Of a stretch of 64,000 nt of DNA, positions 2,659-25,050 are shown piece by piece (within the stretch, counting starts at the first letter, position 1; each line of letters opens with the position of its first letter). Made by a program: the position numbers and the translations under genes. The DNA comes from Eledone cirrhosa (Eukaryota), in the NCBI GenBank assembly GCA_964016885.1, contig OZ024741.1, positions 125,922,001 to 125,986,000 of the forward strand, in the 5' to 3' direction. Under the pieces are notes generated by a model. It was not told the DNA's origin. It saw nothing but the letters and a program-made list of their open reading frames with translations, and searched no databases.

Positions 2659-3157
2659 ACTCATTGCTAGAACAGCCATTAAAATAGTCAAATGCTGTCA
2701 AAGGCAGCGATGGGCAAATTGCCCCAGCGGCCAGTGGTCAACAGAGAGACAAACCACAAGGTGGGTGACAGGCAGATGAAATATAGAAAAGATTGAAAGA
2801 GGAGAAGTGCGCTGGCACACAGAAGTGACTGGAAGAAGGAAATAAAGAAAGGTGATGTATAAGACAACTTTACACACACACATCTTCACCCTCATCAGCT
2901 CTCAAACCAGCAAAATGGTTTTGCACAAAGATGTGTGTGTGTGTAAAGCTGTCTTGTACATTGCCTTTCTTTATTTCCTTCTTCCGGTCACTTCTGTGCA
3001 CCAGCACACTTCTCCTTTTCATTTTCCTCTTTCAATCTTTTCTATATTTCATCTGGCTGTCACCCACTGGCTGCTGGTTTCTGTCCTCTGAGGCATTTTT
3101 GCCCATCACTGTCTTTGCCAGCATTTAACTGCTTTAACAGCTATTCCAGCGATGAGT
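2659..3157. repeat. Long imperfect inverted repeat (foldback/MITE-like)
   Basis: Arms about 2659-2886 and 2928-3157 are reverse complements with small indels; 41-nt spacer. Confidence 0.9.
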
Positions 3158-23134: not shown

Positions 23135-23531
23135 GGCTCATGGCTTAGTGGTTAGAGCATTGGGCTTGCAATTGAAAGGTTGTGCGTTTAATTCTCGGAC
23201 CGGGTGATGTGTTGTTTCCTTGAGCAAGACACTTTATTTCACATTGCTCCAGTTTACTCAGCTGTAGAAATGAGATGATAGGGACTGGGGTCCCTATCAT
23301 TCCACTGCAAAGTGGTCGTGCAGGTGCCACAGCAAAAAAGCACCCATCACTCACTGTAAATGAGGTTGGTGTTAGGAAGGGCATCCAGCTGTAGAAATCA
23401 AGCCAGAATCAGTTCCTGTATGAGCAAGACATGGTAAACCGACCTAACATTGCCCACAACAGGACAACCCGTCTAACCCATGCTAGCGTGGAAGAACGGA
23501 CGTAAAACGGTGAGGATGATGATGATGATGA
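23135..23531 (+). mobile_element. CORE-type tRNA SINE family B with RTE-derived (GAT)n tail
   Basis: TGGCTTAGTGG A-box; CCTTGAGCAAGACACTT..CAGTTTACTCAGCTGTAGAAATG resembles the MIR CORE; close to 29877-30221. Confidence 0.85.
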
Positions 23532-23770
23532 TATATATATATATACGGGATAACAGATTATTGTTATAGGTAGTCCACTTAGGTGTAGTCCAGTTAGGGT
23601 ACTCCGAGTAGTGGATTGTATCAACGCTTGGCTAAGTTTGACTCAACAAGGCGTTTCCATAGTGATGCTGCGCGTACGCATTGATTTCTATGTTGTTTAC
23701 ACTTGGAGTAATGATAAATCAAGAAAGAAGAGTGACACGGTTTGCTATACAAAAAAGGTTTTTAATCACT

Positions 23771-23880
23771 TTGCTGACAATTGTTTCTCTGAACTGGTAG
23801 GTCTAGAGATCGCTACCCGATTGTTTTCACGTCATTCGATCACCAATACATAGTTGTAACCAGTCAATTCATCAGAGCAA
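23771..23880 (-). ncRNA. Type I hammerhead ribozyme motif (long stem II, palindromic stem III)
   Basis: Minus strand: ttgct CTGATGA a ttgactggt [about 70 nt] accagttcag a GAA ACAATTGT C agcaa; stem I ttgct/agcaa, GUC site. Confidence 0.65.
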
Positions 23881-24598
23881 GCGAGAATGAAGGGAATACA
23901 CAGGCATGGCCTCTATATATAGTAATGGTGGCATTCAATTAGAACAATAAAAACAATACTAACAATGCTAGCAATAAATTATTTGAAATAATCACAACAT
24001 CAATCTAAGTAAGACATAGAGTATACTTAAGACTTTAGCATGTAAAACGAGTTGATATGAGGCAGATGTATGAAATTGACATGTAAAAGCTGTCATGGGG
24101 TGTATTATATATAGTGTAGAGATAAGCAGGGGCTTTAAACAATGTACCATTTCCTTTACCGTAGGTTTGGTGACCGTACAAATTATTTATTATTTGACAG
24201 ATAAAATATTTATCATTGTAGTGAGGATAGTAATATTTGTGGTGTGAAGTGGATTCAATATTTATGTGGTCTATATTAGATGAAGGGATTGTTAGTTCGA
24301 ATCATGGGGTTGTTTAGCTTTCACATCATCAATAACATACATGTATAAGATAACATTAACAGAGTAGCAATATAATAGGTAAGTTAATACAGAGGTTAAA
24401 GAGGCAATATATATATAGAGAGAGAGAAAACATGCTGACTACAATTATAACAGCAAGAGGAAGGTGATGTTTTACTTTGGTAGTATTCTGAAAATGTACT
24501 TGGATTTAGGTTCATCTGTTGAGAATCAAAGGTGAAGAAGTTGTGTTGACAGCAGCTGAGAAGGGATATATTTATGGGTTGATAAGATGTTTGCAGAC

Positions 24599-24646
<48 letters not shown>

Positions 24647-24989
24647 AAACGTAAACAGACAACAAAGCAAACACCACAGTACAATGAAGAAATATATTAG
24701 TTTAATACTTAATATAGTAGGAAAAGAGTCTTTATGTTTTGGACACTAGTCCTTCATCAGAAGATAGAATGAGAAATAAAAGATGAAATAGAAAGATAGA
24801 GAGTGAAAAGATGAAGAAACAAAAAAAATTATTTTTGAGAATAAGCATGTGTGTATTCAGTCAGTCATTTTTGTATATATATATATGTGTGTAAATAAAG
24901 TAATTCCATCGGAAAGGTCCAGGAAAAAAGAGTGCTCTATGTAGGTTACAGAACTTATTAGTTATGTAATAAACAACATAAGATAATTA

Positions 24990-25050
24990 TTTCATTTACC
25001 AGTGGTTTCTTGAAAGCAAACAAAATTTGCTCTCTGTCATCAGAATGAAA
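24990..25050 (-). ncRNA. Type I hammerhead ribozyme motif (compact)
   Basis: Minus strand: tttcatt CTGATGA ca gagagcaaa ttttg tttgctttc aa GAA ACC act GGT A aatgaaa; 7-bp stem I, 9-bp stem II, GUA site. Confidence 0.7.

Follow-up and report, generated by a model that had tools for sequence, protein, structure and literature searches.

The stretch of DNA analyzed in this study, referred to as the window, comprises 64,000 nucleotides (nt) of the Eledone cirrhosa genome (assembly GCA_964016885.1, contig OZ024741.1, positions 125,922,001 to 125,986,000 of the forward strand) and carries a hammerhead-type ribozyme motif within a copy of family B, a dispersed Penelope-like element (PLE) family. The family letters used here (A to H) are labels of this analysis. 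Read from the sequence, positions 23880 to 23771 of the minus strand represent UUGCU-CUGAUGA-A-UUGACUGGU...ACCAGUUCAG-A-GAA-ACAAUUGU-C-AGCAA (Table 1). In a first-pass annotation of the window, this place had been described as a hammerhead whose helix III is palindromic and whose site is GUC (C at 23776), and this description was borne out by the sequence. The invariant hammerhead core is present throughout (C3, U4, G5, A6, N7, G8, and A9 together with G12, A13, and A14), and the A15.1-U16.1 pair is followed by a base other than G at position 17 (A...U, then C, yielding GUC). All core bases are located on the sense strand of the host element. From the sequence, site-specific cleavage after the GUC is predicted.

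The motif is distinguished by its helix II domain, since 81 nt separate A9 from G12. It was proposed in the first-pass annotation that stem II closes about 70 nt; the long insert is indeed present, but nine pairs are formed in the stem, with a single U bulged out, and the enclosed stretch measures 60 nt. Helix III can be formed in two ways, namely with 2 bp and a 4-nt loop in the monomer, or with 8 bp between two copies. The computed energy for the self-duplex of ACAAUUGU is -7.8 kcal/mol, compared to -3.7 kcal/mol for helix III of family A, a canonical hammerhead family of the same genome that is described below.

Table 1. Positions within the window of the hammerhead-type motif, its structural parts, and the surrounding family B copy.
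Feature	Position	Strand	Remark
Whole hammerhead-type motif	23771..23880	-	Type I, stem I open; sole descriptor match in the window
Helix I, 5' strand UUGCU	23876..23880	-	U at 23879 private to the window copy
Core box C3-A9, CUGAUGA	23869..23875	-	Intact in 34/42 distinct copies
Unpaired A between A9 and helix II	23868..23868	-	
Helix II, 5' strand UUGACUGGU	23859..23867	-	Paired in 98.9% of alignment cells
Helix II interior, 60 nt	23799..23858	-	Predicted imperfect hairpin; holds most lineage-level variants
Helix II, 3' strand ACCAGUUCAG, one bulged U	23789..23798	-	9 pairs with 23867-23859
Unpaired A, then G12-A13-A14	23785..23788	-	GAAAC intact in 40/42 copies
Helix III, palindrome ACAAUUGU, 8 nt (A15.1...U16.1)	23777..23784	-	Intact in 39/42 copies
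C17	23776..23776	-	C in 42/42 copies; predicted cut 3' of C, between 23776 and 23775
Helix I, 3' strand AGCAA	23771..23775	-	Pairs with 23880-23876, 5 bp in the window copy
Family B copy, 5'-truncated, non-coding, 1,056 bp, 3' untranslated region only	23547..24602	-	Matches positions 1197-2249 of the L031 copy, 94.7% identity
Internal TA run TATATATA	23913..23920	.	Conserved sequence continues upstream of the run in most copies
(TA)n run at the truncated 5' end	24603..24650	.	
G(TA)n run at the 3' end, target microsatellite	23531..23546	.	
Tail, 167 nt	23547..23714	-	Between short-form 3' end ...CUUGAUUUA (~23715) and long-form end (23547)

The host element was characterized by comparing the window copy with related loci of the 3.0-Gb genome. 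Searching with a 367-bp block yielded 3,140 first-look candidates; the 40 that were scored provided 41 matches with identities between 92% and 100%. Family B comprises thousands of copies in this genome. The 3' end of the window copy corresponds to the long-form terminus of the family (...CUGUUAUCCC), its truncated 5' end adjoins (TA)n, and position 24602 corresponds to a point 115 nt downstream of the stop codon of the open reading frame (ORF) in the L031 copy. Homology to the window reaches 24602 in 12 of 29 other loci, the remaining 17 ending earlier at the 5' side, and in 12 loci the sequence goes on upstream past this position, indicating that the window copy is a 5'-truncated piece of a longer element. 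The block of roughly 370 bp between TA runs, which had been regarded as a unit in the first-pass annotation, therefore had to be given up: the TA run at its upstream border is internal to the family, and homology to 24602 was found in the 12 of 29 loci mentioned above. Position 7215 of L031 was at one point considered as the 5' end of the family, implying a 2.25-kb unit without a reverse transcriptase (RT), but this was rejected, as longer copies identify it as a truncation point. Family B copies are dispersed, contain ORF remnants, and attain lengths of about 3 kb (at least 3.0 kb for one sense copy). Within the 64-kb window, no second family B copy was detected. The window copy is, as far as its sequence tells, solitary, truncated, and non-coding, and it is thus very probably inert, with nothing pointing to a role for the host.

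Insertion into TA microsatellites is a common trait of the family, the 3' end being adjoined by at least four TA units in 26 of 30 loci and by two to three in the other four. Inverted partial copies were found on the 5' side in six loci, all six of them ending at ~23715 beside a TA run and not at 23547, which indicates that the 3' end of family B exists in a short and a long form separated by 167 nt. The hammerhead motif is located 61 nt upstream of the short-form 3' end. A composite consisting of an inverted arm of ~1 kb and a sense copy, with a shared boundary at position 1289 of L081, occurs in at least 9 of 13 loci. Rare changes common to the sense copy and its inverted partner were recorded in four loci (L039, L002, L005, and L042), so that both arms were probably derived from one template in one insertion event. 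For instance, CUCAUGA is found in each of the two L039 arms (68-202 and 2882-3016), and alignment column 84 is occupied by a T in the two arms of L002. The loci L006 and L007 (contig C1, ~211.7 and ~212.2 Mb) have flanks in common on both sides and hence represent copies of a segmental duplication rather than separate insertions.

Regarding the coding capacity, the family B ORF remnant P0001 aligns with residues 439-707 of the 709-aa protein P0022 (29% identity, E 3e-34); a 714-aa ORF assigned to family C is matched in its C-terminal part, again at 29% identity. The remnant thereby covers the C-terminal third of ORFs with a predicted RT plus a GIY-YIG-type domain. Family C was obtained by an RT search in which 143 out of 36,686 first-look candidates were scored. 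Its 714-aa ORF is intact at many places in the genome, which suggests recent activity of this family. The AlphaFold model of this ORF has a mean predicted local distance difference test score (pLDDT) of 81, and its seven best Foldseek matches are telomerases (E 3e-9 to 3e-8), as would be expected for a Penelope-like RT. Protein-atlas look-alikes with HTH_animal, GIY-YIG, and RVT_1 domains were also obtained and are regarded as leads only, and a profile search of solved-structure sequences with the ORFs returned nothing over the cut-off. Among the 13 loci inspected for family B, no intact ORF was present (longest 575 aa, ORFs broken), nor was an intact autonomous copy found among the loci examined. 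Family C also forms a head-to-tail pair (contig C4, 259413078 and 259417388, period 4,310 bp) and many head-to-head pairs 1-5 kb apart.

In the ORFs, the motifs RWK, DKT, CxCX5C, and CxxC...CxH are visible by eye, and these motifs were given for the Hydra clade by Craig et al. (2021, PMC8557442; this paper and, in the following, PMC4209133, PMC3088659, and PMC7229834 are cited from partial texts). The elements resemble the Hydra clade, which carries a C-terminal endonuclease (EN+), in having a single ORF with a putative RT followed by a putative C-terminal GIY-YIG-type domain, and furthermore in their (TA)n insertion, inverted 5'-truncated partners, and hammerheads, the likeness being judged from motifs and copy structure. 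Some traits differ from the published description: Hydra-clade elements are stated to be generally shorter than 3 kb, whereas the family C period is 4.3 kb and the family B sense copy at least 3.0 kb long; the published tail measures 30-40 bp, whereas the optional 3' tail is 70-167 nt long here (167 nt in family B); and the published hammerheads are canonical, whereas that of family B is non-canonical. Overall, (TA)n targets, 5' truncation, tandem or inverted partners, and an optional tail are, at the sequence level, in agreement with published PLEs (PMC8557442; PMC11167929).

To place the motif among other hammerheads of this genome, the Rfam model RF00163 and scans of the collected loci were evaluated. 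The RF00163 search revealed canonical type I hammerheads, with 19 over the cut-off among 74 candidates scored. Family A (AUUGCC-CUGAUGA-GUCC-UAAAUA-GGAC-GAAAC-AUUGUC-GGCUAAU) passes this cut-off, and a short 3' end adjoining (TA)n follows 52 nt downstream of its cut site; a long-form tail and inverted partners are present as well. Family A has several traits in common with family B, namely the core boxes, a proximal stem I of 3 bp, the GAAAC-A(A)UUGUC 3' half, (TA)n targets, and short and long ends with the short 3' end at a similar distance (52 vs. 61 nt). It differs in its 4-bp helix II, 6-nt loop, and G10.1-C11.1 pair, and it scores 34-38 bits, whereas family B obtains no score. In the loci L047-L066, the optional tail of family A measures ~100 nt, the subfamilies vary in stem I (AUUGCC, AUUUCC, and CUAGCC), and some of them have lost pairs; no ORF was found in the 1.5 kb examined upstream.

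In total, seven hammerhead families (A, B, D, E, F, G, and H) were identified in ~270 kb of loci scanned, with A9-to-G12 spans of 14, 18-21, 25-36, 48-51, and 81 nt. In the six families in which the TA-adjoining end was readable (A, B, D, an E variant, F, and G), the cut site is located 34-66 nt upstream of the (TA)n-adjoining 3' end, and families A and D likewise possess two alternative 3' ends. Covariation of stem I was observed between families D and F (UUCAUU/AAUGGA vs. CCUUGU/AUGAGG). Family D, likewise a hammerhead of the Penelope-like kind, is represented in the window at 25049-24991 on the minus strand (UUCAUU-CUGAUGA-CA-helix II-AA-GAAAC-CACUGGU-A-AAUGAA, stem I of 6 bp). An unpaired A before G12 had been noted in this motif (25043-25005) as well as in that of family B, and it is common to both; an unpaired or mismatched position with an A before G12 recurs in families B and G and in the window copy of family D, so that the suggestion of a non-canonical hammerhead in more than one family was supported. 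However, the view that the two motif families of the window are unrelated did not hold, as the family D motif is situated upstream of the ORF in tandem or full family C copies (~260 nt in L068, L070, L075, and L078), and it is this ORF that shares 29% identity with the family B remnant.

Based on these findings, we favor, with some reserve, the interpretation that the motif is a hammerhead module which a 5'-truncated Hydra-clade Penelope-like copy carries in its 3' untranslated region, with a predicted cut after C 23776 that is likely to depend on pairing of two motifs or on help by a protein. Two hammerheads residing in read-through or multi-copy transcripts, or in two separate transcripts, would pair via the palindromic helix III and thus form the 8-bp intermolecular stem; the paired RNA would then be cut 3' of the GUC (C 23776), a mode of action suggested previously for other PLE hammerheads. 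Two internal start sites of reverse transcription may underlie the short and the long 3' end, by analogy with the Anolis Poseidon element PAc (Frangieh et al. 2024, PMC11167929), and cleavage itself would be dispensable for insertion. Similar to family B, PAc features a hammerhead a few tens of nt upstream of its genomic 3' ends, two ends with a tail, and an AT-rich target, and its ribozyme needed protein to cut. PAc belongs to another clade, its hammerhead overlaps the ORF start, and its start sites were mapped biochemically, whereas the start sites and protein assistance in family B are deduced from genomic copies only.

The published PLE hammerheads (Cervera and De la Pena 2014, PMC4209133), described as minimal hammerhead ribozymes (min-HHR) with a small palindromic helix III, are type I motifs with an invariant core on the sense strand of a terminal non-coding region. 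Their helix II is long and their helix I short, A9 is followed by an additional unpaired base, and helix III is a short palindrome, implying action as a dimer; all of these traits are shared by family B. In this source, helix II stems of 6-8 bp are reported, compared to the 81-nt domain of family B (nine pairs and a 60-nt insert). Furthermore, the G10.1-C11.1 pair is called highly conserved there, whereas family B has no G-C at this position and an extra unpaired A before G12, and its motif is barely seen or missed by Rfam and by a contiguous-stem descriptor.

Several results weigh against the favored interpretation and have to be considered together with the alternatives, the first being chance. 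The motif was the only match in the window to a relaxed descriptor (CUGANGA; helix II with at least four contiguous pairs; at most 120 nt to GAAA; helix III with at least two pairs; H; stem I). Second-order Markov simulations of the window yielded on average 0.14 matches per window for a stem I of at least 3 bp and 0.01 for at least 5 bp. With 0.14 matches expected per 64-kb window and a scan spanning very many windows, the motif alone does not exceed chance, and its surroundings decide its credibility. Two short boxes with complementary flanks could accordingly have arisen in a repeat and been multiplied with it. Rfam is blind to the motif: the window contains no hammerhead match at the gathering threshold, and the region 23300-25300 contains none even at E <= 10, likely due to the 60-nt insert in helix II. 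Covariation is absent within family B (0 pairs changed on both sides in 42 copies), which is explained by the copies being too alike, and the predicted fold of the 79-nt helix II domain is just modestly more stable than those of its shuffles (-19.3 kcal/mol, z = -1.6). Moreover, BLAST detected no match between families A and B, and aligning them globally from the cut site downstream likewise yielded no significant similarity (z = 1.4, p = 0.11; tails z = -0.3), so that the same layout, and not common descent, is claimed for the two families. Chance is nevertheless very improbable, considering that the motif occupies the sense strand and that its distance of 61 nt to the short 3' end agrees with the 34-66 nt of five other families, of which one exceeds the Rfam cut-off. 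An additional base after A9 and a palindromic helix III, both typical of PLE hammerheads (PMC4209133), are present, the nine-pair helix II directly adjoins the core, and lineage-level variants are depleted in the hammerhead-defining columns, as detailed below.

The second alternative is that the motif descends from a Penelope-like ribozyme but probably is no longer catalytic, the element spreading without it; the changes that disabled it would then be the insert in helix II, the loss of the G10.1-C11.1 pair, and the weakness of stem I. This is possible, though rather on the unlikely side. Instead of a G10.1-C11.1 closing pair, the motif has A.A, or a U.G first pair with unpaired As on both sides. 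The 5-bp stem I, described as perfect in the first-pass annotation, exists in the window copy, but it is private to it: among the 42 distinct family B copies compared (mean column identity 96%), the U-A pair at alignment columns 17/124 occurs in this single copy, while the other 41 carry A in place of the U, so that the fourth stem I pair is A.A, with 3 bp before the mismatch and further pairs beyond it. In addition, the hammerhead fold has a predicted energy of -24.3 kcal/mol, 6 kcal/mol above the predicted minimum of -30.3 kcal/mol, corresponding to ~1e-5 of the ensemble; the minimum-energy fold pairs CUGAU with GUCAG instead. PLE hammerheads are also reported to cleave poorly in vitro (PMC4209133), and catalytic hammerhead mutants had no effect on the insertion of Anolis PAc in vitro (PMC11167929). 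With respect to the class assignment, Pfam identified RVT_1 in one of nine ORFs (E 3e-4) and GIY-YIG in one of nine (E 0.025), both below the cut-off, and the fold evidence stems from the family C ORF and not from family B.

The distribution of core variants is likewise of importance for this question. Searching the genome with an exact 19-mer spanning the core box revealed 345 copies with CUGAUGA and 343 with CCGAUGA, in which the invariant U4 is changed to C. CpG decay of CCGAUGA was examined as the origin of CUGAUGA and rejected, as the mirror product CCA accounts for only nine copies; both forms were therefore inherited from source copies. An initial assignment of the U4-to-C copies to a minor sub-branch (5 of 42 in the sample, namely L017, L020, L027, L030, and L043) was dismissed as well, since they represent about half of the exact matches genome-wide. 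Pairwise divergence amounts to 2.0% in the U4-to-C lineage (n = 4) and 5.7% in the others (n = 26), indicating, for a small sample, that the former is younger. Family B hence appears to have kept spreading after an invariant core base had changed.

Against a purely degenerate motif, variants present in at least three copies, which were taken as changes of source copies, affect 1 of 46 hammerhead-defining columns and 14 of 89 others (one-sided Fisher p = 0.013 in a post hoc test with few columns), whereas private substitutions are equally dense in both (0.43 and 0.48 per column). This pattern suggests that, among the lineages which spread, the motif was under some selection. The other invariant bases are all kept, and helix II remains paired almost throughout (Table 1). 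Moreover, a natural active hammerhead with U.U at 10.1/11.1 is known (PMC3088659), and family G of the same genome combines the same mismatch-plus-A and long helix II with a compensatory pair and tandem arrays. In its motif (L017:2941-3020; L093-L102 on contig C1), the helix II domain spans 48-51 nt, with six pairs surrounding a long loop; a C...A mismatch occupies 10.1/11.1, an A precedes G12, stem I comprises 5 bp, and helix III is formed by a 10-nt palindrome (ACUAAUUAGU). Among nine distinct family G motifs, seven have G-C and two have U-A at one of the helix II pairs. Exact 20-mer matches to the family number 2,579 in the whole genome, and they are frequently spaced by ~520-545 bp on the same strand.

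Metazoan non-LTR (long terminal repeat) retrozymes are protein-free units of ~170-400 nt that are organized in head-to-tail tandem arrays with a hammerhead in each unit. The first-pass annotation had proposed a small retroelement of the retrozyme or pseudo-LTR (pLTR) kind. The Penelope (pLTR) part of this proposal is retained, whereas the element is neither small nor a retrozyme, being dispersed and 5'-truncated. If family B were such a retrozyme, its transcripts would arise from a short tandem unit, self-cleave, and circularize into small circular RNAs. The type I hammerhead with a short palindromic helix III is indeed found in retrozymes (PMC7229834), and family G forms tandem arrays of ~530 bp in the same genome, a layout that is retrozyme-like as judged from the 20-mer spacing. 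However, family B reaches about 3 kb, bears ORF remnants, and is present as a single copy in the window, and no short head-to-tail arrays were found in the 30 loci and the longer loci examined. A retrozyme is accordingly the most improbable of the explanations considered here.

Returning to the favored hammerhead module of a Penelope-like copy, PLE hammerheads, their dimeric design, and their uncertain role are already published, and the motif therefore adds a family rather than a principle; less usual is the combination of an 81-nt helix II domain with a 10.1/11.1 mismatch. The partial texts cited report helix II stems of 6-8 bp, unresolved 'half cores' 35-50 nt apart, and one U.U mismatch (PMC4209133, PMC8557442, and PMC3088659). 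No case combining both features was found in them by searches that were not aimed at absence, and supplementary lists may hold examples. It is conceivable, though we consider it doubtful, that the Hydra-clade elements of this genome comprise an active subclass with a 10.1/11.1 mismatch (N...A-GAAAC) and helix II domains of 50-80 nt that is missed by Rfam and by published descriptors. If so, Penelope-like lineages reported as hammerhead-less or as possessing 'half cores' only may carry such ribozymes, and the long arm might serve as a platform to which the protein of the element binds, fitting a protein-assisted ribozyme. As the combination of an 81-nt helix II and a non-G-C 10.1/11.1 position escapes Rfam and size-limited descriptors, ribozyme censuses of invertebrates and 'no hammerhead' claims for Penelope-like lineages may be undercounts. 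The younger U4-to-C lineage, accounting for about half of the exact-matching copies, represents a natural experiment on the need for cleavage in Penelope-like retrotransposition, and it suggests that hammerhead cleavage is not needed for it, in line with the Anolis in vitro result.

A few further features of the window were recorded. The window copy of family D is a short 3' fragment with an inverted partner at ~25064-25156, and pairing between the two accounts for the Rfam matches in 23300-25300, which are microRNA models on the inverted repeat 24961-25156. At ~29150-29300 and ~62480-62700 on the minus strand, 3' ends of elements adjoin TA runs and contain CUAC...GAGUAC like the family B tail. 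The first-pass annotation had noted the recurrence of this motif (as GTACTC...GTAG) next to hammerhead-like remnants; in the sense orientation, it is visible at ~29230 and ~62635 beside the TA-adjoining ends, but BLAST revealed no significant similarity at either site, and homology is thus not shown. The ~62635 site combines GAAAC, a 5-bp helix III (ACGGC/GCCGU), GUC, and GGGAUCC, while a CUGANGA box is absent, and it is possibly a hammerhead remnant or a rearranged form. Finally, a plus-strand repeat at 23303-23530, ending in (GAT)n(TA)n at ~23514-23546, adjoins the family B copy tail to tail within a shared TA run and is far more abundant. Its summed contig depth (short repeat contigs from four runs of one study, no listed run being recorded as RNA) amounts to ~2 million, compared to 30-180 thousand over family B, and the same repeat also occurs beside family B copies in L012, L022, L025, and L026.

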